Source of the DNA: Bacilli bacterium
GTDB taxonomy: Bacteria; Bacillota_I; Bacilli_A; RF39; UBA660
NCBI GenBank assembly: GCA_017404555.1
Contig: JAFRCD010000002.1
Coordinates: 59,793-123,792 of the forward strand
Direction of reading: 5' to 3'
Length of the DNA stretch: 64,000 nt
Shown: piece by piece, positions 27,674 to 54,470 of the stretch
How positions within the stretch are numbered: the first letter of the stretch is position 1
Layout of the letters: the number at the start of each line of letters is the position of its first letter
The notes under the pieces: model-generated
Told to the model about the DNA's origin: nothing
Databases searched by the model: none
The model's input: only the letters and a program-made list of their open reading frames with translations
Position numbers and translations under genes: made by a program

Positions 27674-29611
27674 TTACTTTTGATGTTTCACCTTTAATTT
27701 TTCTCTATTTTGAAATAATAACACTCCTCCAACACCTATACCGACTAGTATTAGATAAGGTAGGATTGTTAGAAATAATCCTGTCACCGGTGAACCTTCT
27801 CTTTGATTATAGAAATTAACAACATTACCATTATGAGTTATCGAGTTAGATCCCGTATCATTTCCACTAGACTCACTTCCACTATTTATCTTAAAGGTTG
27901 TGGTATAGTCACTTTCTGTACCTTCTATTATCTTGTAATAATCATCTATAGAAATAGAGTCGTAAGTATTGTTGTTATATGTAAACTGTCCTATAGTAGC
28001 TGTTTCTCCATGATTTAGAGTAATTGAATCTTTTGTACCACTCTTACACTTAGTTACTTCAGAACCATCTTCAGGTACTCCTGTTCCTTTTATTAAGTAT
28101 TTCTCACTTCCAGAGTAACTTTGACAAGCACTACTTGCAGCATCATCTACTTGAACACTGAAACTAAAGTCTTTAGTTCTATCAGCCATAATACCTTTAA
28201 CTGTTTTAGTTAGTTCTATATGTCCAAACTTAGTTTCATCCTTTGGCTCATTAAAAGGCATATTACTTACTTTGGTATCATTATCATCTTTAATAACAAA
28301 CTTAGCATTAAAGTTTCCTGTTGGAGTTCCATTTTGATCAGTTACATTTGTTACTTGTACTATTACTGTATATTCATTATCATTATCTACTGGATATGCA
28401 CTATTACTAGTAGCAGTCTCTTTCACAGTCAATTCATAATTGCCTGGTTTTTTAAAGCTTAGTCCCATATTAGCAAAATTAATTGTTGTACTCTTATTTA
28501 CTGTATAACTATTACTTACAGTTTCAGTTCCAGCGAAAGATATGTCTTGGGTGTAGAATACTATTCCACTACCAAAAGTTGGTGATTGGGATGGAGATGA
28601 TACTTGACTACCCTTTATAACGTTTGATCCTGCTGATTTAGTAGCGATTATATTATCAATATTAGAAGTTCCACTCCCATAGTTTACTGATATTTGGGTT
28701 CCTGATTGCGTAGCTGCATTAGTAAAGGCACCACTATAATTTGTTGGGTTAGCTAATATCTGAATTGTCCCAGAAGCATTTGTACAACCATTGAACATAT
28801 TATTAACATTAGTCACCCTTGAAGTGTCCCAATTACTAATACTATTTATATTGCTCAAACTACTACAGCTATCAAACATCCCTCCCATATTTGTTACTTT
28901 GGAAGTGTTCCAATCTGATAAAGAATTTATACTTGTTAAAGAACTACAGTAAATGAACATGGCAGACATAGTAGTTACATTTGAAAGATCCCACGCACTT
29001 GTTGCATCTACACTAGATAATTGTGAACAATATGCAAACATCCAAGATGTATTAGTTGTTTTAGAAGCATCTACTAAACTAAGGCCTGATATATCCATTA
29101 ATCCTTGCATGTTTCTAAACATGTTGGCAGAAGATGAATTCAAGTATATTTTATCTGCTTCACTATAATAATACATCGTTCCGTCCGTACTATCAAAAAA
29201 GATGTATATTGGAAACTCCGAATTGGCTACCGATACTGTGTTTGCTGCGGTTGGAACAAAACCACTTGGTAAAGAACCAGCTTTTTTTATAGATTTTATT
29301 GCAGTGTCAGGTGAGCTGTATGTCTTTGTTGAACCATTAGCAAGAGTTTTCATTATTCCATTAACTGTTGTTCCTGTGTTAAAAGTTGCCAATCTAATTA
29401 GTGAGGTATCTTCTGTTGATATACTATAAGTAAAATCTACTACAGGAGCATTATAAACGTTTTGTATTGTCCTTGATATTGTTGCAGTACTACCATCTGG
29501 CCAGTTAACAGTACCTGCCGCTTTTACTTCCATTGTTTTGAATGTTAACACTCCTACTAGTGCTACTACAAGTATTAAAGTTATATTGTATAAATTAAAT
29601 ACTTTTTTCAT
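27674..29611 (-). CDS. Cell-surface protein with DUF285-type repeats and an SPVTG sorting signal; paralogue of 5795..7135
   Basis: Signal peptide. Tandem repeats of about 26 aa with W-[DN]-[TL]-S-x-V-T-x-M-x-x-M-F-x-x-C. C-terminal module shared with 5795..7135, then SPVTG + hydrophobic stretch + NREKLKVKHQK. Confidence 0.6.
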   Translation of the reverse strand: MKKVFNLYNITLILVVALVGVLTFKTMEVKAAGTVNWPDGSTATISRTIQNVYNAPVVDFTYSISTEDTSLIRLATFNTGTTVNGIMKTLANGSTKTYSSPDTAIKSIKKAGSLPSGFVPTAANTVSVANSEFPIYIFFDSTDGTMYYYSEADKIYLNSSSANMFRNMQGLMDISGLSLVDASKTTNTSWMFAYCSQLSSVDATSAWDLSNVTTMSAMFIYCSSLTSINSLSDWNTSKVTNMGGMFDSCSSLSNINSISNWDTSRVTNVNNMFNGCTNASGTIQILANPTNYSGAFTNAATQSGTQISVNYGSGTSNIDNIIATKSAGSNVIKGSQVSSPSQSPTFGSGIVFYTQDISFAGTETVSNSYTVNKSTTINFANMGLSFKKPGNYELTVKETATSNSAYPVDNDNEYTVIVQVTNVTDQNGTPTGNFNAKFVIKDDNDTKVSNMPFNEPKDETKFGHIELTKTVKGIMADRTKDFSFSVQVDDAASSACQSYSGSEKYLIKGTGVPEDGSEVTKCKSGTKDSITLNHGETATIGQFTYNNNTYDSISIDDYYKIIEGTESDYTTTFKINSGSESSGNDTGSNSITHNGNVVNFYNQREGSPVTGLFLTILPYLILVGIGVGGVLLFQNREKLKVKHQK

Positions 29612-31334: not shown

Positions 31335-32654
31335 CTACTTAATCGTAATGATAAAGGGACTGTCTTTAGTACCTATTCCATCTTTAATATAAGCATCACT
31401 TCTAATATAAAGAGCTATTTTAAAAGCAAGTTTAGTATTAGATCTTATTGCTCCTGATAAAGAATCACTATATATAACTCTATTATACTCTTTATCATAA
31501 GGAGTAATTAAGAAATAATCATTCTTTTCATTGGTTGTAAACATTTCTCCATATCTTAGAAGTCCTATTTTAGCATTAACATATTCTCCTTTAATAATGT
31601 CTTTATAACTATCTTCATAAGTACATTTACTATTATAGAATTTACCTTCTACTAATAGGTCTTTAGAATTATCACTTAATTTCTCATACCAATCATGATT
31701 TAAATAATAAGCAATATTTTTCTTATCATTTAAATCAAATTTAGATTCTTTGGAAGAAAACTTTTTATTATTAAGTGTTTTCATAGAAACTAATTTAGTC
31801 TTTTCTTCATCAATAGTTACTATGCGATAAAGTTCATCATTAAAATGAACATATTCACCAATAGACCTAGTATTTAAAAGAGCATTATCCTCTACATAAT
31901 CTTCTAAATAATAAGGATTACTTTCACTACCATCTCCACCTTTAATTTCTACACTACTTAGAATATTAATGGCTGGTCTAATTAGATGGGTTAATTCTTT
32001 AGAAGATGTTTCTACCTTACCCTCTTTATTTACAATCATATTACTGTCATTATCATAAGTATAAGTAACCCAATTAGTATTATTATTTAGATAACCATCT
32101 CCAATACTTTCAGTAGTACCATTATATGATAATTGATAATCATAAGTAGTTAATAATCCAACTGGATTAGTAATAGTTTCATAACTTTTAGATTTTCTAA
32201 TATCTCCTAAGATACGACCATCATTATATTTAGTCCAAATACTATCTTGTTTAATATAATCTTTATAACTTTTTAAACTACCTAAGAAACCATTATTACT
32301 AGTATCATTTAAGAAATAATCAATATCATCATTACCAGATAAAGTATTAATACCTTTATCAGTAACCATTTTAACGGTATTTTCTTTGTTATTGATTGAT
32401 ACTGCTCGCCATAATTTACCACTATACCAAACATAGTTATTAGGCTTTTTAGAAGTAATAATACTATCATCATCAACTTCTTCAATATTATTAGATAAAT
32501 CACTTATTAACATATTGTATAATGCTTTATTATCAGCTACTGGCTTAGAAGCTGCTCTACTAATATTTAGTATTAAATTAGAGGATACTCCTAAAAAAAT
32601 AAGTACTAGGGCAAGAATTAATAAATTATACTTATTTCTAATTAAAAAGTTCAT
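31335..32654 (-). CDS. Secreted/membrane-anchored hypothetical protein (439 aa)
   Basis: N-terminal signal-anchor and an extracellular Asn/Tyr-rich sequence. No assignable domain. Confidence 0.3.
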   Translation of the reverse strand: MNFLIRNKYNLLILALVLIFLGVSSNLILNISRAASKPVADNKALYNMLISDLSNNIEEVDDDSIITSKKPNNYVWYSGKLWRAVSINNKENTVKMVTDKGINTLSGNDDIDYFLNDTSNNGFLGSLKSYKDYIKQDSIWTKYNDGRILGDIRKSKSYETITNPVGLLTTYDYQLSYNGTTESIGDGYLNNNTNWVTYTYDNDSNMIVNKEGKVETSSKELTHLIRPAINILSSVEIKGGDGSESNPYYLEDYVEDNALLNTRSIGEYVHFNDELYRIVTIDEEKTKLVSMKTLNNKKFSSKESKFDLNDKKNIAYYLNHDWYEKLSDNSKDLLVEGKFYNSKCTYEDSYKDIIKGEYVNAKIGLLRYGEMFTTNEKNDYFLITPYDKEYNRVIYSDSLSGAIRSNTKLAFKIALYIRSDAYIKDGIGTKDSPFIITIK

Positions 32655-32787: not shown

Positions 32788-33177
32788 ATGGATAATAATG
32801 ATTGTTGTCTAGGAAAACTATTAAAAGTTATTGATACATTACAAAAAAACGCCAACAACGAATGTCCAATTGATGAAGGTTGTAGTCGTCCTTATTTAGG
32901 AACTTTTACTAGTTCTTTGTGTTATAACACAAGACCAGTAACTTTATATTTAAAAAATGGTGATTTATTTAGTGCTCCTTATAATAGTACTGGTACTACA
33001 TCTTCTGTTTTCAGAGTGGAAAGAGTTAAAGATTGTTGTGCTAAGTTAAGAGTCTTAGAGCCAGTTGTTAATGAGGGTGTTACTACTTATAATGCTACTA
33101 ACTTTTTTGTTGATGTTAATTTACAATGTATCTGTGCTATTAAATGTTTAGCTGACATTATTTTAGAAAATATTTAG
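32788..33177 (+). CDS. CotY/CotZ-family cysteine-rich spore coat/exosporium protein
   Basis: The SVFRVERVKDCCAKLRVL and FFVDVNLQCICAIKCL blocks match the CotY/CotZ hallmarks (FFRVE...CCATL...CIEVDL.CFCAI.CL). AAGGAG RBS. Confidence 0.75.
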   Translation: MDNNDCCLGKLLKVIDTLQKNANNECPIDEGCSRPYLGTFTSSLCYNTRPVTLYLKNGDLFSAPYNSTGTTSSVFRVERVKDCCAKLRVLEPVVNEGVTTYNATNFFVDVNLQCICAIKCLADIILENI

Positions 33178-33192
33178 AAAGGAGTTTTTTCC

Positions 33193-33594
33193 ATGTGTGA
33201 GGAACAAAATAATACTTGTTGTTTAGAAAATACTTTAGCTAAGATTATTAAATTACAATGTATAGATTCTATCTGTGATGTTGAAGGAGGTTGTGATAAA
33301 CCTTTTTTAGGACCTACTCCTAGTATGGTTTGTTATAATACCAGACCAATTAGTCTTTATAACTGTTGTACTGGAGCTCTATGGAGTTTTCCCTATACCA
33401 GTGGAGAAACAACAGCCAATTCCACTGTCTTTAGAGCCGAATCACTAGATGGTTGTTGTCTTACTTGTCGGATCTTAATTGATAATGGCAATGATACTTA
33501 TACCGATACTTCAGAATTCTTTACTATAAACCTAAAATGTTGTGGTGCTCTACAATGTCATAGTGATGCTTTCGTTGAATTTAATAATAATTAA
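33193..33594 (+). CDS. CotY/CotZ-family cysteine-rich spore coat/exosporium protein (tandem paralogue)
   Basis: The TVFRAESLDGCCLTCRIL and FFTINLKCCGALQC blocks. Lies 15 nt after the first gene, with its own AAGGAG RBS. Confidence 0.7.
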   Translation: MCEEQNNTCCLENTLAKIIKLQCIDSICDVEGGCDKPFLGPTPSMVCYNTRPISLYNCCTGALWSFPYTSGETTANSTVFRAESLDGCCLTCRILIDNGNDTYTDTSEFFTINLKCCGALQCHSDAFVEFNNN

Positions 33595-33979: not shown

Positions 33980-35104
33980 ATGTTACGTCAAAAAATTAGT
34001 TTTAAAATTATTATCCCTGTAATTTTATTTGCGATTATCAGCATTGTTACTATTTATAGTGCTTCTACATATATTTCTGCTGGTATGGGTAACTTAGCTT
34101 TAAAACAAGCTATTTGGTATTTAGCAGGTATAGTGGTAGTTATTTTTATCGTTAAGATGGGTAATAATTATTTATATGACAAAGCCTTTCTTTTCTATAT
34201 TTTTGGAATAGTATCCCTTTTAGGATTATTACTTTTCGCAACACCTATTAATAGTAGTAAATGTTGGTATATTGTACCAGGTTTAGGAAGTATTCAACCA
34301 AGTGAATTTATGAAAATATTCTTAATGCTTTACTTAGGAGTATTTATTCATGATTTTAGGGATAAGTATACTAATCCTTCTATTAAAGAAGAATTAATCT
34401 TTATTATAAAATCGTTTGTTATCTTCTTAATACCCGCTGTTTTAACCTTCATGCAACCTGATACAGGATCTGTTATTATTTATTTAGTAATATATCTTTG
34501 TATGATGTTTTTATCAGGGATTAGAGCCAGATGGTTTATTATTGCTTTTGGAATTATTGGTGCTATCTTAGGTACCGTTTTAGGAATATATTTCTTCAAT
34601 GGTGATATGTTTATAAAAGTTTTTGGTACTGATTTATTCTACCGTTTAGATAGAATATTTGCTTGGACTAGTGGTAGTGGATTACAACTAGAAAATGCTT
34701 TAGCATCCATTGGTTCAGGGGGTTTAGTTGGTCACGGATTTAACCATACTCCATTATACTTCCCTGAATCAGGAACAGATTTTATCTTTGCTGTTTTCGC
34801 TTCTAATTTTGGTTTTATTGGTTGTCTATTACTAGTTGGTCTAATTCTTTATTTTGATATTAATCTAATACTACTTTTCAAAAAGAAAATCCAAGATACA
34901 GAAAAGTTCGTTTTAGCAGGTATTGTGGGAATGCTTTTATTCCAACAAATCCAGAATATTGGTATGACAATTGGTCTATTACCTATAACTGGAATTACTT
35001 TACCATTTATATCTTATGGAGGAAGTTCCCTTCTATCATACATGATATTAATTGGTATTTTGATAAACATTTCTAATGAAAAAGATCATAAATATAAATA
35101 TTAA
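33980..35104 (+). CDS. SEDS-family peptidoglycan glycosyltransferase (FtsW/RodA/SpoVE)
   Basis: Ten-TM protein with SEDS blocks (QPSEFMK, GHGFNHTPLYFPESGTDFIFAV, PFISYGGSS). Start at the ATG at 33980 behind a GGGGTGA RBS. Confidence 0.85.
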   Translation: MLRQKISFKIIIPVILFAIISIVTIYSASTYISAGMGNLALKQAIWYLAGIVVVIFIVKMGNNYLYDKAFLFYIFGIVSLLGLLLFATPINSSKCWYIVPGLGSIQPSEFMKIFLMLYLGVFIHDFRDKYTNPSIKEELIFIIKSFVIFLIPAVLTFMQPDTGSVIIYLVIYLCMMFLSGIRARWFIIAFGIIGAILGTVLGIYFFNGDMFIKVFGTDLFYRLDRIFAWTSGSGLQLENALASIGSGGLVGHGFNHTPLYFPESGTDFIFAVFASNFGFIGCLLLVGLILYFDINLILLFKKKIQDTEKFVLAGIVGMLLFQQIQNIGMTIGLLPITGITLPFISYGGSSLLSYMILIGILINISNEKDHKYKY

Positions 35105-35115
35105 AAAAGTGATGA

Positions 35116-35856
35116 TTACTCATCACTTTTAATTACGCTTGTAAGTAAATATTCATCTCCATATTTCTCAAAACGATATAAGTAAGTATCCAGTTTATCA
35201 CTCAACTGTTTTTGTTCTTCGTCAGTAAAATTAGGTTCTCCCTCAAATTCATATACTTTCTCTTTGGCCTTTGGATCCTTATATACTTCGTTTTTTATAA
35301 TTTTAGGTTCCTCAATAACAGTTAATTTTAAAAACAATAGTTTTTGAGCAACTACTATATAATCAGTGTAGAGTTCTTTAAACTCAGTTTGTAAAGGAAA
35401 TATATTTAAATTATTATCCTGACCATTATATAAGTACTTATCATCTTTAACTTTATAAACTGTCAAATTATTACTCTTAATTGGTTTTTTATAATAGTTA
35501 ACACTTAGAAAGTATTTATACTTGGTTTCATCTAATTCATCAGTAGAAACTTCCTTTTTAGAACCATCTTTATTTATACTTGTTAATAATACTAAAGTTT
35601 TTTGCATATCATTAATTTCATCCAAGTTCTTAATTGGATAATTTTGTCCTAAAACATTATTGTATACTTCTATTTTAGGAACAATTAATTTATCATAAGT
35701 ATGAATAAATTCATTAAGTTCTATTTCTTGATGATCTTTCTCTTTAGCAGGTAATTTATCCTTAGTAAAACTTATATTTTTACCATATAGAAGTAATCCA
35801 CCACCAAAGATTAATATCAATCCAACTATAATTAATAATAGACTTTTTTTATTCAC
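35116..35856 (-). CDS. Membrane-anchored hypothetical protein (246 aa)
   Basis: N-terminal signal-anchor only. Confidence 0.3.
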   Translation of the reverse strand: MNKKSLLLIIVGLILIFGGGLLLYGKNISFTKDKLPAKEKDHQEIELNEFIHTYDKLIVPKIEVYNNVLGQNYPIKNLDEINDMQKTLVLLTSINKDGSKKEVSTDELDETKYKYFLSVNYYKKPIKSNNLTVYKVKDDKYLYNGQDNNLNIFPLQTEFKELYTDYIVVAQKLLFLKLTVIEEPKIIKNEVYKDPKAKEKVYEFEGEPNFTDEEQKQLSDKLDTYLYRFEKYGDEYLLTSVIKSDE

Positions 35857-35868
35857 TATAGTTCCCTC

Positions 35869-37779
35869 CTAAGAATAAACATATTTATAATTAGCTTTGC
35901 ATTTACTAACCCAATAAGAACAAGTCTTTTTCACTCTTGTTGACCTACAACAACGATACTTATTACCACTACGTTCAATAGTTAAACCATTGGCAGAAGA
36001 ACACGCTATTCGGCCATTATTAGGAACCGCCCAACCACTACATGATTTTGTCGTATAAGAACAATCATAATACTTTGTACACCCTGTATAATGAGAAAAT
36101 ACTGATTTTCTCTTATATGTTTTAGAAAAAGCTTTACTATTTCCGGCATTATCTGTACAAGTACTACTTATTGTTACACTGGTTCCACTCATTTTTTTAG
36201 AAGTATTGCCACTCTTAATTCCACTTAAGGCATCAGAACATGTTAATTTAGCAGTTCCGCCTGCAGCTATTTGTCCACTAGTAAAGCTTCCTGTAGGATT
36301 AGTACGATCCAGTTTTATAGTATAATTGCTAGAATATGATGAACAATTTCCTAATTTATCACATGCACGATACTTAATATACGATACCCCTTGTGCTTCG
36401 ATGTTGCGAGCTGAAGCTTTTATATTGGTGTCGTTGGAAGTTTTTCCAGTTGTTGTATATTGATAATATACCCCTCCTGCTCCACTATCAGTAGCACCAC
36501 TAGCATTTGTATAGACTTTTCCAGAAAACCAAGTATTATTTGGATAAGCACTTAAGCCACTGGCATTCGCTGGTTTTGTACTGGCATTCTTCCATTTATA
36601 AAGACCTACTTTTAACCCTGTTGGGGCGGTTTTATCAAAATAAGCATCATAAATACAAGATTGAGTGTTTCCCACTTTATCTTTAATCGTTTCCGTGTAT
36701 TTTGCGGTAGTACCACTAGAAAATGTTCTTTGATAAGGACTTTTTTCACAACCACTCTCGTTATCAGCACATGCCAATTTTATTGTTCTACTACTATTAG
36801 TCCAGGTTGTACTTGCCCCTGTAGCCTTTCCACATGTTGGCGGCGTTATATCAATATAAACATTATAAGAGCAAACTTTTTCATTACCGGCTTTATCAGC
36901 TATTGTTACTGAGGCTCTCTTAGTAGTTTCTAAATAAGTATTATTGTAACTACCTCTTGCACAATTACTTCCACCTGTATCATTACAAACTTGGTTTATT
37001 GTACGAGCTTTTTTCGTCCATACATCACTAGCATTTTTTGCCTCTCCACAAGTTGGTGGTGTTTTATCTATTTTTACTTCAACTACTCTGCTTTGGCAAG
37101 TAACTCCGTTAGCACCTCTACCTATTATTCTATATTTGCTTATTCCAGGTTCACTTATAGTAATTGTTTTTTCTTCGTGATTATCGGAATCAAATTTAAC
37201 CCAACCAGCTGCAGTTTGTTTTAGAATATCAAAACTTTCTATTTTGGTAGGTTTTTTAGCTTTCAATATTACATCTTGATTTGTCCATATATTAGCTGGT
37301 GTAGCCTGCAGTATATTATCACAATTTATTATCTTTCCCATATTTGGATCTGCTGTACTTTCTATAACTTTATTTTTATAATTAGGGCAATTCAAATACG
37401 TTTTATAATCATATTTTTTCTCGCCTGTTTTGGTTATTACTACATAACTTTTTTCATCATAAGGCTCACTGGCATTAGGATCACATACTTCTTTAGCATA
37501 ATCTTTTACTTGTTCTATATAATCCTCACTTTGTAAATCAGCTAACGCGACTTTATTTGATTGACCAACTCTAATAGGGCGTTCTCCCTTATGGTCATTA
37601 TAGTAATCCATTCCAGCTGCTACCACTAATTTATCTATTCTTCTATAATAGCTTTTTTCTAAACTCTTCCGTACACCACTTACACCCATTATAGCTAAAG
37701 TTGTTAAAACAGCTACTATAGCTAAGGTTGTTAATAGTTCTACCATTGTAAAACCTTTTTTATTCTTCACTATCATCAC
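35869..37779 (-). CDS. Large type IV prepilin-like protein with cysteine-rich Ig-like repeats
   Basis: Class III signal KGFTMVELLTTLAIVAVLTTLAI (G/FTxxE). Four repeats of about 75-90 aa begin D-x-T-[PAN]-PT-[CG] and carry conserved Cys pairs; a Cys-rich C-terminal tail follows. Confidence 0.6.
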   Translation of the reverse strand: MMIVKNKKGFTMVELLTTLAIVAVLTTLAIMGVSGVRKSLEKSYYRRIDKLVVAAGMDYYNDHKGERPIRVGQSNKVALADLQSEDYIEQVKDYAKEVCDPNASEPYDEKSYVVITKTGEKKYDYKTYLNCPNYKNKVIESTADPNMGKIINCDNILQATPANIWTNQDVILKAKKPTKIESFDILKQTAAGWVKFDSDNHEEKTITISEPGISKYRIIGRGANGVTCQSRVVEVKIDKTPPTCGEAKNASDVWTKKARTINQVCNDTGGSNCARGSYNNTYLETTKRASVTIADKAGNEKVCSYNVYIDITPPTCGKATGASTTWTNSSRTIKLACADNESGCEKSPYQRTFSSGTTAKYTETIKDKVGNTQSCIYDAYFDKTAPTGLKVGLYKWKNASTKPANASGLSAYPNNTWFSGKVYTNASGATDSGAGGVYYQYTTTGKTSNDTNIKASARNIEAQGVSYIKYRACDKLGNCSSYSSNYTIKLDRTNPTGSFTSGQIAAGGTAKLTCSDALSGIKSGNTSKKMSGTSVTISSTCTDNAGNSKAFSKTYKRKSVFSHYTGCTKYYDCSYTTKSCSGWAVPNNGRIACSSANGLTIERSGNKYRCCRSTRVKKTCSYWVSKCKANYKYVYS

Positions 37780-38547
37780 CTACTTTGTTATTTTCTTTCT
37801 TTGTATTTTATAAGTTGTTTTTAGAAGGGCTTTATCGCTTAATAACCTTTTAAAAAATTTAGTAAGTTTAATCCTTCCTCCTGGGATTATTTCTCTTTTA
37901 TGTTTAAACATTTCTTCTACGGCATATTTAGCTACTACATCAGCCTTCATAGCTTTAACCCCAAATTTGACATTAGCTACTTTATTAAAATTAGTGTCAA
38001 CAGGTCCTGGTGTTAAAACTGATATATGAACATTACTCTTATTCTTCTTAAGTTCATACCAAATACTATTAGTAAGGCTTAAAACATAACTCTTAGTAGC
38101 GTAATAAGTTGCCATTAGAGGTCCTCCTGGCAAGAATCCTGCTGATGAGGCAACATTTAAAATATATCCTTTATCTTTTTTAACAAAATCACGCAAAAAA
38201 GCTTTGGTTAGAATATGCAAAGCTTTTACATTGGTCTCTATCATCTCTAATTCCCGAGATAATTCTAATTCAACAAAATTACCACATAAACCAAAGCCAG
38301 CATTATTTACAAGAATATCGATATCTTCTCTTCTCGTTTGGACATAAAGCTCTTTAGCTTTTTGTTCTGAACTCAAATCCATAATAATGATCTTTGATTT
38401 AGTTTTTAATTCTTTTTGTAAGGTTTCTAGTTTTTCTTTATTACGGGCTACTAAAATAAGTTCGTACCCTCTATTTGATAAGCATTTAGCTATTTCTCTA
38501 CCTATACCACTAGAAGCACCAGTTACTAAAGCCTTCAATATTTTCAC
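37780..38547 (-). CDS. Short-chain dehydrogenase/reductase
   Basis: TGASSGIGREIA Rossmann motif, NNAG, and YxxxK (YYATK). Confidence 0.85.
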   Translation of the reverse strand: MKILKALVTGASSGIGREIAKCLSNRGYELILVARNKEKLETLQKELKTKSKIIIMDLSSEQKAKELYVQTRREDIDILVNNAGFGLCGNFVELELSRELEMIETNVKALHILTKAFLRDFVKKDKGYILNVASSAGFLPGGPLMATYYATKSYVLSLTNSIWYELKKNKSNVHISVLTPGPVDTNFNKVANVKFGVKAMKADVVAKYAVEEMFKHKREIIPGGRIKLTKFFKRLLSDKALLKTTYKIQRKKITK

Positions 38548-38552
38548 CTTCT

Positions 38553-39455
38553 TTAATTCTTGATAGTACTACTTTCAAAATAATAGTTTTTATTATCTAT
38601 ATGGAAACGATATTCAATAGTATTAGCTTTATCTTTATCCATATAATCATCAATATTAATTGTACTATCATTAATTGAGTTGGCAGCTACTGTCTTGCTC
38701 TCAATTAATCTAGTTTTAGCATAATCAGAATAAACATTAATTATTACATTAGAACCTGAAGGTTGCTGAGAAGTATAAACTACTCTTTCAGTTAATACTA
38801 AAGTATTGCCTTTTTTCTTAGCCTTAGTCAATTTAGTATAAGCAGTCTTTATTTTGTTCTTATTAGCTTCTGCTGTATCAAAAGTAGATTTATATGATTT
38901 TAGGTTTTCATCATAGACTAAATTCACCATATTACCACCATCTTTACTAAATGGTAAGATAATACGATAAGATCCTTCTCTATGATATGGTATAACTTTA
39001 CCAAAGAATTTTTTAAGAGCTTGTTCAAACTCATCAATTGATACCGCATAGATTTTCTTGCCATCTTGCGTTTTACCAGTATCTAAGAAATTATCAGTAT
39101 TTAAGAATTGAGTAGCATAGAAAATCTTTTCAGCATTATCAAAGTTATCAAGAGTTACCTTTCGATTAGTTAAGAAATAATCTTTATTATTGGCATTATC
39201 TCTACCATAAGTAACATAGTTATAAGTAGTAACTATTCTTGGACTCTCAATTGATAATGTCTCTTCAACATTACTTGCTGGTGAATTTTTATCTTCCTTT
39301 GGTTTAGATGAACTATTTTTACCAATCATATTAAATAATAGTACCAAAAGAACAATAACTACTATTGCTCCAACAACAATTCCTATTAATTTTAAAAGTT
39401 TAATTATATTCCCCTTTTTAGGGTTATTTTCTTCTGTTTTTATTTGGTCATACAT
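38553..39455 (-). CDS. Membrane-anchored hypothetical protein (300 aa)
   Basis: N-terminal TM helix and an extracellular domain with no assignable motif. Confidence 0.3.
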   Translation of the reverse strand: MYDQIKTEENNPKKGNIIKLLKLIGIVVGAIVVIVLLVLLFNMIGKNSSSKPKEDKNSPASNVEETLSIESPRIVTTYNYVTYGRDNANNKDYFLTNRKVTLDNFDNAEKIFYATQFLNTDNFLDTGKTQDGKKIYAVSIDEFEQALKKFFGKVIPYHREGSYRIILPFSKDGGNMVNLVYDENLKSYKSTFDTAEANKNKIKTAYTKLTKAKKKGNTLVLTERVVYTSQQPSGSNVIINVYSDYAKTRLIESKTVAANSINDSTINIDDYMDKDKANTIEYRFHIDNKNYYFESSTIKN

Positions 39456-39557
39456 GAAACCATCTCCTACTTTAATTAAATTATATCATTATTTAGAAAC
39501 TTTGTCTTAATTTTTGTCAATAGATATGTAAAGTATAATTACAAAAAGATTACTATA

Positions 39558-50405: not shown

Positions 50406-50963
50406 TTATTCACTTTCTTCTACTTTAATAAGGCCATGATAATGACCATCTTTATCAAGATTTAAATTAGTGTCTTTATCAATCCATAATCTAATAGTAT
50501 AATCAGCTGTTTTACCAGGTTCAATAATATCAGTAGCTAAAACACCGTTTTCTAATTCATTTAATAAAACGATATTATTATGTTCCTTATCCTTATGATA
50601 ACCAAGCTTAATACTTTCTATTGGTAGTTTAGTATCACTGCATCCATCAAGATCATACTCTTCTTTATCATCAAGAATCTTAACAGTATATTTCAAATTC
50701 ATCTTACTGTTGTTTTTAATACTAATCGTATATCCTTTAGATGAAAGACCTAAAGCATCAGTTAATGGATTTACTTTAGTAATACTGATCTTGTCTTTTT
50801 CTTTTTCATGAAAAGTTACTTCTAAATTCTCAACAGGAGTAACTTGATCATTCTCTTTACTAAATTTATCATAAATAAATCTAGTAGCTACTATTGCGAA
50901 AAGTAAAATAAAGGCAATAACAATACCTCTTTTGAGATAATACTTTAATAAATACTTATTCAT
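50406..50963 (-). CDS. Membrane-anchored hypothetical protein (about 185 aa)
   Basis: Start at the internal Met (MNKYLLKYY...) behind an AAAGAGGTG RBS. Single TM helix, then a probably extracellular beta-rich domain. Confidence 0.35.
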   Translation of the reverse strand: MNKYLLKYYLKRGIVIAFILLFAIVATRFIYDKFSKENDQVTPVENLEVTFHEKEKDKISITKVNPLTDALGLSSKGYTISIKNNSKMNLKYTVKILDDKEEYDLDGCSDTKLPIESIKLGYHKDKEHNNIVLLNELENGVLATDIIEPGKTADYTIRLWIDKDTNLNLDKDGHYHGLIKVEESE

Positions 50964-50976
50964 AAAGCACCTCTTT

Positions 50977-51264
50977 CTATAGTGTGTCTGGAAGCTCTTT
51001 TTTAGAGTGAGCATACTTAATATTTTGACTACTTAAAACTTCATTATTTAACGATCTAGTATCTATTTCTGAAGATAGTAAATCCTTAATATATTCTGCA
51101 CTAGCTTCAGTGGCATAAACACTCTTCATATTTTTAATAAGTTCATTTAAATTATCAGCTTGTTTAGTAAATGCTTTGGTAAGATCAGCAATGTTTTCTT
51201 TACATAAATCTATTTGTCTTTCCAAAGCTAATATTGTATCTTCGGAGATTAATTGATCTTTCAT
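50977..51264 (-). CDS. Small alpha-helical hypothetical protein (95 aa)
   Basis: ORF predicted to be helical. Second of a small-protein pair upstream of the membrane-anchored protein. Confidence 0.3.
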   Translation of the reverse strand: MKDQLISEDTILALERQIDLCKENIADLTKAFTKQADNLNELIKNMKSVYATEASAEYIKDLLSSEIDTRSLNNEVLSSQNIKYAHSKKELPDTL

Positions 51265-51975: not shown

Positions 51976-52920
51976 TTAGGGTAAATCTTTTCTAGTTATC
52001 TCTTTTATTTTTTGACCATTTACTTTAAATACTACTTTCTCTTTTTCCAAGGTTTCAAATACTGAATATGATATTGAATAAATAACTTCTTCTAAAATTT
52101 CCTTTTTACGGTCAAAAATACCCGAATCAAAATCTAGAGTTATAGATGTATCATCTTCGTCATAACCTTTTAGATGAGTATTATTATTTAAAAAGCTCAT
52201 TAGATTAGGTTCATAAATATAACTACTAGCTAATTCATCAATAATAACTTTTATTTTTTGATCTTTAGTATTTAAATACTTAGTTACTGGGACATAATAA
52301 TTATTGCTATCAATTTCTTCTAAATAGTATAAGACTACTTTTTGTGTATCTTCTCTTTTATGGATATCTATTCTTTTATTAATTCCTATTTCCCGAGTTA
52401 ATACTTCCGGTAAAGGAATATTAGTATTGGGATAAGTTTTTAAAACTTGATCTTCTACTAAGATTTGAACTTCTTTAATATCAGCGATATCAGTAATACT
52501 AAATACTAAAGATTCTATTAGTTTTTTAGAAAGATGAGGAGTTATGTTAAATAGTTCTTTAGAAAAGTTAAGTATTGCTCTTCCATCTTTAACATTGATA
52601 CTTTTTATTTTGGTATTTTTAGGAATTGTTCCTCTTAAACCAGTTGGTTTTAATGTTTGAGAATCATCTTTTAAAATATTTATAATCTTGCGAATATTCT
52701 TTTCATCAGATTCTTCATCTAAAATTATTCTATTTTTAACTAAATATTCATTAGAATCCATTAAATAAACACTGTTAGTTCCCAACCCTGATAAATACTC
52801 TATTTCTAAACCAACCGGTAACTCTTCTTCTTTATTGGTAGGTAAAAAATAAATAGTCATAAGAACAAATGCAGTTAGGGTTGTTATAAAGATTTTTCGA
52901 AGAGCCTTTTTCTTAAGCAT
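51976..52920 (-). CDS. Membrane-anchored protein, possibly GerM-like (GerMN-domain) sporulation/germination protein
   Basis: N-terminal anchor. Repeated segments (ILNFSKE..., ITLDFDSGI...) resemble GerMN domains. Adjacent to gerE. Confidence 0.3.
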   Translation of the reverse strand: MLKKKALRKIFITTLTAFVLMTIYFLPTNKEEELPVGLEIEYLSGLGTNSVYLMDSNEYLVKNRIILDEESDEKNIRKIINILKDDSQTLKPTGLRGTIPKNTKIKSINVKDGRAILNFSKELFNITPHLSKKLIESLVFSITDIADIKEVQILVEDQVLKTYPNTNIPLPEVLTREIGINKRIDIHKREDTQKVVLYYLEEIDSNNYYVPVTKYLNTKDQKIKVIIDELASSYIYEPNLMSFLNNNTHLKGYDEDDTSITLDFDSGIFDRKKEILEEVIYSISYSVFETLEKEKVVFKVNGQKIKEITRKDLP

Positions 52921-53840: not shown

Positions 53841-54470
53841 CTATCTCAAGTCTTCTAAGAAGTGATCAAGTTCTGATTCATTATCATAGCTATATAAGTA
53901 TTTAGTAGTATAACTACTAGCATAGTTTTCAACATCAATTGCGACTAAAAGAGATTTCTTATTATCTTTATTTGGTACATAGACAATATTTAATAAGTCT
54001 CCTTGATTAGTAGAACTATAGATATTATCTGAGATTGAGAAACTATAACCAGGACAAGTAACCTCATATTTTATTTCTTCTACTTTAGAGGCTGCTTTTA
54101 GTTTATTAAAGACCTTAGTAATAGAGTCTTTAGAAAGTATCTTATGGGTTTTATCAAAAGCATTACTACTGCTGGCATCAGCAAGTTTACAAGTTGATAA
54201 ATAAGGGTGGGTACTCTTAACATTATCCATATAGTCCTCTATCTTAGCCTGCATACCATCATAATCAAACTTAGAGTTTTTAGCAACCACTTTTTCTTGT
54301 TTTTTTTCATCATTACTAGGTGGTACTGTTTCCTTTTTATAAGTTGTCTCTTTCTCTTTTGGTTGATAATCAGCTACAGCATCAAAAACTATATAAGCCC
54401 CCATTGCTAAAACTAATAGCCCTAAAACACATACTACAATAATAAATATTACTCTTTCTGTACTCTTCAT
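53841..54470 (-). CDS. Membrane-anchored hypothetical protein (209 aa)
   Basis: N-terminal TM helix and an extracellular domain with two Cys. Sits between efp and spoIIIAH where Bacillus has spoIIIAA-AG. Confidence 0.3.
   Translation of the reverse strand: MKSTERVIFIIVVCVLGLLVLAMGAYIVFDAVADYQPKEKETTYKKETVPPSNDEKKQEKVVAKNSKFDYDGMQAKIEDYMDNVKSTHPYLSTCKLADASSSNAFDKTHKILSKDSITKVFNKLKAASKVEEIKYEVTCPGYSFSISDNIYSSTNQGDLLNIVYVPNKDNKKSLLVAIDVENYASSYTTKYLYSYDNESELDHFLEDLR

Follow-up and report, generated by a model that had tools for sequence, protein, structure and literature searches.

Modular type IV pilins are numerous, an InterPro survey having found more than 1,200 of them in 264 architectures (PMC8179133), and the design has been shown experimentally for the modular minor pilins PilB, with a von Willebrand factor A (vWA) module, and PilC, with a lectin module, of Streptococcus sanguinis (PMC8179133, PMC9934059). 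Few such proteins have been studied, all from cultured pathogens; modular pilins in general are thought to underlie the functional diversity of otherwise simple type IV filaments. Here we analyse a prepilin-type gene carried by a 64,000-nucleotide stretch of DNA from a Bacilli bacterium (GCA_017404555.1, contig JAFRCD010000002.1, positions 59,793 to 123,792; hereafter the window). We read its product, with a probability of roughly 55%, as a minor type IV pilin of the modular ('giant') sort, acting as a strain-variable adhesin. New in this analysis is the combination of the uncharacterised large family of pilins with immunoglobulin (Ig)-like arrays in uncultured gut Bacilli to which the protein belongs with the replacement of its whole displayed part within a species, including domain-level mosaics with a crossover that maps to linker-coding DNA.

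The window protein resembles PilB and PilC of S. sanguinis in its monoderm host, in a short class III leader with Gly−1 and Glu+5, and in combining a small pilin module and a short linker with bulky modules that the filament is proposed to display in the service of adhesion. It differs from them in bearing five Ig-like domains and a putative Cys knot instead of a single vWA or lectin module, in being encoded outside a pil operon, in its many paralogues and in that the grafted part is replaced between strains. CofB of enterotoxigenic Escherichia coli and TcpB of Vibrio cholerae are type IVb tip minor pilins of diderms that are encoded inside the pilus operon and lack Cys-rich repeats; their leaders differ from that of the window protein in type and length, and no sequence similarity to it was detected beyond the α1 helix. 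As for the displayed domains, Gram-positive Ig-like adhesins of the Big_3/DUF7743 type share with the window protein a D-x-A-G-N motif and tandem β-sandwich repeats with D-x-T-x-P linkers. Export through Sec and a C-terminal LPXTG/sortase anchor are usual for these adhesins, whereas the anchor of the window protein would be its N-terminal pilin module.

Two well-known pilin loci offer parallels for the variation between strains. Alleles of pilA in Pseudomonas aeruginosa are linked to a specific gene immediately downstream (tfpO and others). They occupy one locus as several very divergent alleles within the species, and their variation affects phage and ligand recognition (10.1101/150227). The window locus likewise has divergent alleles with an allele-linked downstream gene; however, the P. 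aeruginosa alleles encode major pilins of about 150 amino acids and their accessory genes encode glycosyltransferases or pilin-like proteins, whereas the 246-amino-acid partner in the window is without a recognisable domain and the variation proceeds by whole-domain shuffling. In the pilE/pilS system of Neisseria, a conserved N-terminal pilin region is followed by a hypervariable exposed C-terminal region that is changed by recombination. The window locus has in common with it that the pilin N-terminus is kept and the exposed part recombined, but no silent cassettes were found in the window, the variation is seen between strains and not shown within a clone, and the crossover uses linker-coding microhomology.

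Leader, pilin module and displayed domains

The DNA around the start of the gene reads TAG GTG ATG ATA GTG AAG AAT AAA AAA GGT TTT and contains two candidate GTG codons (Table 1; residue numbers below are those of the 636-amino-acid reading). The downstream one, at 37770, is preceded by an AGGTGA Shine–Dalgarno site overlapping the stop codon of the upstream short-chain dehydrogenase (SDR) gene, was also chosen by the gene callers of public assemblies (633 amino acids) and matches the N-termini of homologues (MKNKKGFT), so that the leader is most likely six residues long, MKNKKG preceding F. The junction consists of MKNKKG followed by FTMVELLTTLAIVAVLTTLAI, which opens with FTMVE and belongs to the hydrophobic α1N segment, and has all the features of a class III signal, namely a short, basic leader with a final Gly, a hydrophobic +1 position, Glu+5 and some 20 hydrophobic residues. 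The N-terminus scored 26.2 bits against Pfam N_methyl (PF07963; cut-off 21.2) and 26.8 bits against TIGR02532 of NCBIfam (cut-off 16.3). Glu+5 is the single invariant column in an alignment of 54 homologous sequences, and Gly−1 and Phe+1 are each kept in at least 90% of the aligned homologues. The canonical class III signal with Glu+5 proposed in the first-pass annotation of this DNA is thus well founded. A regular expression scan and a hidden Markov model (HMM) of the family N-terminus each found this one prepilin-motif protein only in the 64-kb window. The α1N coding region also contains a 27-nt tandem duplication (37682–37735, 81% identical) that yields LTTLAIVAV-LTTLAIMGV.

A profile of the first 150 residues of 35 family members was compared with solved structures and matched geopilin (E 4e-15) and PilE1 of S. 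sanguinis (4e-13), followed by PilA, Neisseria PilE and the pseudopilin GspG with E-values of up to 2e-5; the match to Neisseria PilE spans about 85 residues, and F10 falls opposite the first residue of the mature solved pilin chains. Coincidence of the GFTxxE motif, which the first reading had named as one condition that would undo it, is contradicted by these matches. AlphaFold2 (AF2) modelled residues 1–150 as a 51-residue helix and a small sheet, with a predicted local distance difference test score (pLDDT) of 88 and a predicted template modelling score (pTM) of 0.73. The α1 helix, of about 50 residues and homologous to that of solved pilins, is what is expected of a type IV pilin, and at the level of sequence we take the class III signal and α1 as established.

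The earlier view that a long extension takes the place of a pilin head is not supported, as a small head is predicted at residues ~63–135 and the extra domains follow it. C99 and C131, each kept in at least 90% of homologues, flank its last strands and resemble the D-region disulfide of many pilins. The fold of this head is likely, yet weakly tested: it comes from the model, and a Foldseek search with the model of residues 1–150 gave no significant match.

The remainder of the protein was examined by running AF2 on the whole sequence with the 54-sequence alignment (mean pLDDT 81), which placed five β-sandwich domains at residues 150–237, 243–309, 315–382, 390–490 and 496–557 (D1–D5), mostly with pLDDT above 90. 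Four D-x-T-x-P-T linkers, at residues 238, 310, 382 and 491, coincide with the boundaries between these domains. The first-pass annotation had seen four Cys-rich repeats opening with D-x-T-[PAN]-PT; these motifs are real and act as linkers, but the segments that they open are unequal, D2 and D3 being true copies, D5 a degenerate relative of D3 (33% identical, E 9e-5) and D4 a different module, and the fifth Ig-like domain, D1, had been left out of the count. Homologues of D1 are confined to the closest relatives among the 120 listed homologues. The D2-type repeat was found by iterated search in 358 copies in 113 family proteins, each of its four Cys being 90–94% conserved. D4 occurs in 78 of the 120 listed family proteins, with up to 72% identity where whole proteins are about 29% identical, which argues that modules move among family members; against the NF047446 OmpL47-type β-barrel domain it reached 22.3 bits over residues 429–482, below the cut-off of 40. 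The tail, Cys-rich as first described and comprising 79 amino acids with 8 Cys, is limited to P0001 (the window type) and P0002 among the 120 homologues, and is proposed to be a distal binding or knot module.

An Ig-like nature of the repeats, suggested at first from their sequence, agrees with both the AF2 model and a Foldseek search of the whole model against the PDB, which returned Ig/FN3 arrays, the best being the neck of the Aureispira grappling-hook protein GhpA (E 3.5e-10). These matches support an Ig-like stalk and nothing more specific in the modelled structure. The comparison with Ig-like HMMs recommended earlier gave a divided answer: the window protein itself scored 10.4 bits against Big_3_2 (E 0.76), below the cut-off of 23.3, while its homologues match Big_3_2 (11 of 54) and DUF7743 (10 of 54), as well as Big_3_3 and Big_13. 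Likeness to Ig domains is therefore supported by the homologues and by the fold, and membership of the window protein in the Big_3_2 or DUF7743 model is not shown. The 24 Cys of the protein are distributed in even numbers over the pilin module, D1–D5 and the tail (2/2/4/4/2/2/8 respectively); given this parity and the conservation of the four Cys over the 358 copies, two disulfides per D2-type repeat are a reasonable expectation, and the Ig-like stalk is probably disulfide-stapled.

Raynaud et al. (2021) define modular pilins by an N-terminal pilin module that bears the IPR012902 motif together with one or more further structural modules from outside type IV pili. The protein has this make-up, with a pilin module (residues 1–135) followed by five β-sandwich domains and a Cys-rich tail. 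As judged from its predicted domains it is a modular pilin in that sense, and departs from what is expected of one solely in its gene neighbourhood, as do family members throughout the lineage.

Strain variation at the prepilin locus

A second assembly (GCA_017404445.1, loci L001/L002) is syntenic with the window. Fourteen flanking proteins are mostly 97–100% identical between the window and L001 (e.g. FtsZ 100%, an EIIB-like protein 100%, FtsK 99.3% and FtsW 99.2%), the lowest being a protein of 93 amino acids (92%), whereas the prepilins of the same two strains are only 43% identical. In a BLASTN comparison with L001, identity is 98–100% through the gene for a 300-amino-acid protein and the dehydrogenase gene upstream, declines over the pilin module (88, 81, 73 and 81% per 100 nt) and is then lost altogether across the strain-variable island given in Table 1; alignment resumes exactly at the terminator-like hairpin that follows the gene for the 246-amino-acid protein. 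Between strains, the displayed part is exchanged or reshuffled as a cassette together with the linked 246-amino-acid membrane protein, and this behaviour at the level of strains is clear.

At least three allele types occur in this slot. The window type (P0001, 633 amino acids) comprises D1–D5 and the 8-Cys tail and is followed by the 246-amino-acid gene; positions 34900–38200 (3.3 kb) are 100% identical to locus L095, and the same allele is present in L096. The P0005 type (651 amino acids) differs in its C-terminal domain, has four repeats of the D2 type and is without the 246-amino-acid gene, and P0006 (577 amino acids) is built in the same way with one repeat fewer, so that repeat number differs between these alleles. 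P0002 (565 amino acids) is a three-part mosaic: its residues 1–135 are 90% identical to the window type, its D1 is an exchanged domain with 93% identity to the P0005 type and 35% to the window type, D2 is missing, and from D3 to the end of the tail identity to the window type is 97%. From the alignment of the junction, this crossover, the only one mapped in detail, lies inside ~25 bp encoding I-D-K-T-P-P-T-C-G, over which identity is imperfect. Direct DNA repeats within the prepilin gene are short ones only, no long ones having been found, and a tblastn search of the window, using the prepilin and the 120 homologues as queries, detected no silent cassettes or partial copies. A partial copy of P0005 (454 amino acids) has been deposited as a hypothetical protein under a Methanosphaera sp. 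metagenome-assembled genome (MAG; MBR0472376.1), almost certainly through a binning error.

Because the gene for the 246-amino-acid protein is found with window-type C-termini (L095, L096 and partially L091) and is absent from the P0005 and P0006 alleles, we treat its product as an allele-linked partner. We infer that the variation serves a changed binding specificity, or escape from phage or host immune recognition. The locus amounts to a natural experiment, in which near-identical strains differ in the displayed part of one pilin.

Family, machinery and competing readings

The gene had been called an orphan, a description that can be set aside: a search of 5.8 billion proteins, with candidates scored, gave at least 225 significant relatives, which include further alleles of this locus from the same species as well as close relatives encoded at a different locus (L004) in the same samples. 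The 120 listed relatives are mostly 560–1,110 amino acids in length and Cys-rich, and almost all open with K-G-F-T-[LM]-[VI]-E-L-L; very large members of 1,300–1,590 amino acids are encoded at loci L009, L015, L016 and L040. A Pfam scan of 54 members found N_methyl in 53 of them, the Ig-like models mentioned above, thrombospondin type-1 (TSP1) modules in three, and choline-binding repeats and List_Bact repeats in one each. Among the matches listed, the loci come overwhelmingly from MAGs of uncultured 'Bacilli' or 'Tenericutes', recovered from the gut of rabbit, goat, sheep, buffalo, reindeer, chicken and human (Hadza, UMGS), the chicken MAGs including Candidatus Faecimonas, Scybalousia and Onthousia, genera that NCBI places in Bacilli incertae sedis. 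The family spans gut Bacilli of ruminants, rabbits, chickens and humans; a literature search on pili in RFN20 returned nothing. If its members are adhesins, the variable modules might determine host or partner specificity, or help to evade phages, in bacteria that have not yet been cultured.

Some giant prepilins (P0008, P0069, P0079, P0083, P0104, P0117 and P0035; L006, 13330–15795) end in TSP1 repeats of the spondin or ADAMTS type, which are rare in bacteria, and the C-terminus of P0003 consists of choline-binding cell-wall repeats. At L004 (16073–18129), from the same samples as the window, an N_methyl protein of 119 amino acids is encoded beside a thioester (TED)-domain protein and a sortase, so that these organisms combine prepilin-type surface proteins with sortase-dependent ones.

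The first-pass annotation reported no pil machinery in the window, which phmmer searches seeded with genuine PilB, PilC and PilD sequences bore out for pilB, pilC and pilD. Machinery is present in related genomes. In the human-gut MAG UMGS592 (L017, 4655–6889), a T2SSF-type pilC and an A24 prepilin peptidase gene lie 2.5 kb upstream of a family member of 871 amino acids. The pilC-pilD pair recurs on a 58.8-kb contig of Candidatus Scybalousia (JAZOBJ010000012.1; L092, 8546–10765), ~22 kb from a giant prepilin (L018), and again in L097 (8529–10768). Its setting is conserved (dnaG-rpoD-trmK-x-pilC-pilD-dnaB/dnaI-thrS-mraZ), with no adjacent pilB or pilins, and A24 peptidases 57–85% identical to that of L017 are numerous in related Bacilli MAGs; no A24 match was found in the accession range around P0005 (MBQ3469208.1). 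A solitary pilB lies among core genes in MAG STE_87 (L093, 10001–11566), which also has prepilin-type genes of 378 and 484 amino acids (L074). In L048, pilB adjoins six short pilin-type genes, and in L020 and L022 short major-type pilins lie ~6 kb from two giant ones; the latter two, with FtsK 67% and EF-P 64% identical to those of the window, are the closest relatives with a pilin-type context. A PilB candidate in L030, from a Walker A motif scan, was a false positive that Pfam assigns to the ABC transporters. Type IV machinery is fully dispersed in this lineage, with the pilC-pilD pair isolated and pilB alone, and the support that these genes give to processing and assembly holds for the lineage only.

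Among the options listed at the outset, the one that fits best is a large minor pilin of the adhesin type; a 'novel use' of the prepilin signal is not supported, since modular pilins with extra domains have already been described and surveyed (PMC8179133). On the mechanism that we favour, the prepilin would insert in the membrane through α1N; a PilD-type prepilin peptidase encoded elsewhere would cleave after Gly9 and methylate Phe1; and the pilin module would enter a type IV filament of short major pilins built by the assembly proteins PilB and PilC. Owing to the bulk of the protein, a place at or near the filament tip would be most likely, as proposed for other bulky modular pilins; from there the Ig stalk would hold the terminal Cys-rich module away from the cell for ligand binding.

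Several points weigh against this interpretation. Neither pilB, pilC or pilD nor a short pilin gene is present in the window, so that a genetic association with PilB, PilC and a major pilin is absent within these 64 kb, and the related MAGs that bear machinery are order- or family-level relatives only, as the FtsK and EF-P identities indicate. Family members are dispersed among housekeeping genes, with up to five in 20 kb, whereas the minor pilins of one filament are not usually so numerous or so scattered. Expression, cleavage and incorporation of the window protein into a filament are predictions, and disulfide bonding in an anaerobic gut Firmicute is deduced solely from the parity and conservation of Cys.

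The main rival is a wall-spanning alternative, which we regard as clearly less probable. Here the protein would be cleaved by PilD and remain unpolymerised, held by α1N, with the Ig stalk (five domains, ~20 nm) carrying the Cys-rich tip through the peptidoglycan and the prepilin signal serving as a general display route for large variable adhesins. Family genes are many and occur singly or in tandem beside housekeeping genes (rseP-lon in L004, rpmF in L006 and efp-ftsK in L022; five within 20 kb in L066), outside pilus operons; the machinery is scattered as well, pilC-pilD standing beside rpoD-trmK and pilB alone; one member ends in repeats that bind the cell wall; and members of 1,300–1,590 amino acids would be awkward as filament subunits. 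Nevertheless, Glu+5 and the predicted head, complete and conserved together with its Cys pair, are kept across the family and would be needless for a mere anchor, and the characterised precedents, PilB and PilC of S. sanguinis, are filament subunits.

A broader version of the adhesin interpretation may also be put forward, tentatively, and with odds well short of even. The class III signal would serve small-genome, spore-forming gut Bacilli as an all-purpose means of displaying a large and dispersed family of Ig-array adhesins, whose exposed modules (thrombospondin-like or Cys-knot tips) would be continually reshuffled within species at linker-coding microhomologies together with allele-specific partner genes, with pilB, pilC and pilD scattered among core genes. 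Such an arrangement would constitute a pilin-based, domain-shuffling system of surface variation.

A role in a ComG-type competence pseudopilus, or in some other type IV filament that does not serve adhesion, with the Ig array capturing DNA or serving another filament function, seems improbable. The N-terminus bears a weak resemblance to ComGC, ComGD and ComGE in NCBIfam, Com pili are common in monoderm Bacilli (PMC12153270), and a Com_YlbF gene lies near the paralogues in L004; yet the scores against ComGC, ComGD and ComGE (19.1, 15.9 and 18.6 bits) fall far below the cut-offs (75, 70 and 49 respectively) and reflect the N-terminal motif only, and strain hypervariability together with TSP1 and cell-wall-binding modules suits surface recognition better than DNA uptake.

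We consider it very unlikely that the protein is a Cys-crosslinked component of the spore surface or of an exosporium appendage, exported through the prepilin signal during sporulation. Its 24 Cys make it unusually Cys-rich, a CotZ-like pair (32788–33594) lies 2.7 kb from the prepilin gene, a pair of paralogues stands near cotE in L004, and pilB of L093 is near spoIIM and a germination protease gene; against this, sporulation genes abound in the small genomes of spore-formers, so that such proximity may be chance, the CotZ-like genes lie beyond ftsW on the opposite strand, nothing ties expression of the prepilin gene to sporulation, and we know of no precedent for class III signals in spore appendages. 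Least credible of all is a plain signal-anchor or secreted protein with a coincidental GFTxxE, or a non-functional ORF, which would fit the lack of machinery in the window but conflicts with a motif above curated cut-offs, the invariant Glu+5, the profile matches to solved pilins (E 4e-15), an open reading frame (ORF) intact in many metagenomes with strong ribosome-binding sites, and the A24 peptidases that the lineage does have.

Neighbouring genes and feature coordinates

The features of the locus are collected in Table 1. Upstream of the prepilin gene, the SDR protein matches adh_short (E 1e-40), and it and the 300-amino-acid protein are ~99% conserved between strains. Co-transcription of both genes with the prepilin gene is probable; upstream of the 300-amino-acid gene, at 39508–39480, lies a promoter-like sequence that includes an extended −10 element and is a consensus match only.

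Table 1. Features of the prepilin locus, in window coordinates.
Feature	Position	Strand	Details
Prepilin-type ORF	35869–37779	−	636 amino acids from GTG 37779; 633 amino acids from GTG 37770, the likelier start
Class III leader MKNKKG	37753–37770	−	Predicted PilD cleavage after Gly (ORF residue 9), leaving Phe+1 and Glu+5
Pilin module	37375–37752	−	Residues 10–135: α1 helix 12–62, small β-sheet 74–78/112–117/123–128, pair C99/C131
D1, Ig-like β-sandwich, 2 Cys	37069–37359	−	Residues 141–237; AF2 strands 150–237, pLDDT 81–90
D2, 72-amino-acid four-Cys Ig-like repeat	36853–37068	−	Residues 238–309; opens with the DKTPPTCG linker; AF2 pLDDT >90
D3, second copy of the four-Cys repeat	36637–36852	−	Residues 310–381; 44% identical to D2, E 2e-18
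D4, 108-amino-acid β-sandwich module, 2 Cys	36313–36636	−	Residues 382–489; AF2 pLDDT 94–98
D5, short Ig-like domain, 2 Cys	36109–36312	−	Residues 490–557; AF2 strands 496–557
C-terminal tail, 79 amino acids, 8 Cys	35872–36108	−	Residues 558–636; AF2 pLDDT 30–57 (low)
Accessory gene, 246 amino acids, product N-terminally membrane-anchored	35116–35856	−	AGGAGGG 7 nt before GTG; 12 nt after the prepilin stop
Terminator-like hairpin, closing the putative operon	35105–35130	−	Consensus scan only
Upstream genes	37780–39508	−	300-amino-acid membrane-anchored protein 38553–39455; SDR 37780–38547; genes abut
Strain-variable island (all after the pilin module, and the accessory gene)	35131–37376		BLASTN against strain L001

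The 246-amino-acid protein had no Pfam, NCBIfam or PHROG match; 23 full-length relatives were found among 1.84 billion representatives. No similarity was detected between it and either the small membrane proteins encoded downstream of other giant prepilins (L006) or the upstream 300-amino-acid protein. A PHROG search with the pilin and its neighbours gave no phage relationship. In the metagenome contig L090 (2035–3708), the first ~100 codons of the 246-amino-acid gene are joined in frame to the middle part of a phage portal protein (phrog_12, profile positions 185–595 of 646), and contig L091 ends near the same point; the join most likely arose where the assembly branched between variable strains, producing a chimera and not a real fusion.

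Elsewhere in the window, two Cys-rich proteins of 129 (32788–33177, +) and 133 amino acids (33193–33594, +) are encoded side by side, the first matching Spore-coat_CotZ (E 1.3e-16) and the second having a similar Cys pattern and no Pfam match. Together with GerM (51976–52920) and with CotE in the related locus L004, this pair marks the organism as a spore-former. Four N-terminally membrane-anchored proteins without Pfam, NCBIfam or PHROG matches are encoded on the minus strand (31335–32654, 38553–39455, 53841–54470 and 50406–51014), and those of 439 and 300 amino acids are 98–99% conserved between strains, unlike the prepilin. Finally, the gene matching an ORF of 645 amino acids (27674–29611, −) in an identical metagenome contig has DUF285 and a weak DUF7601, and the product may be a surface-repeat protein.

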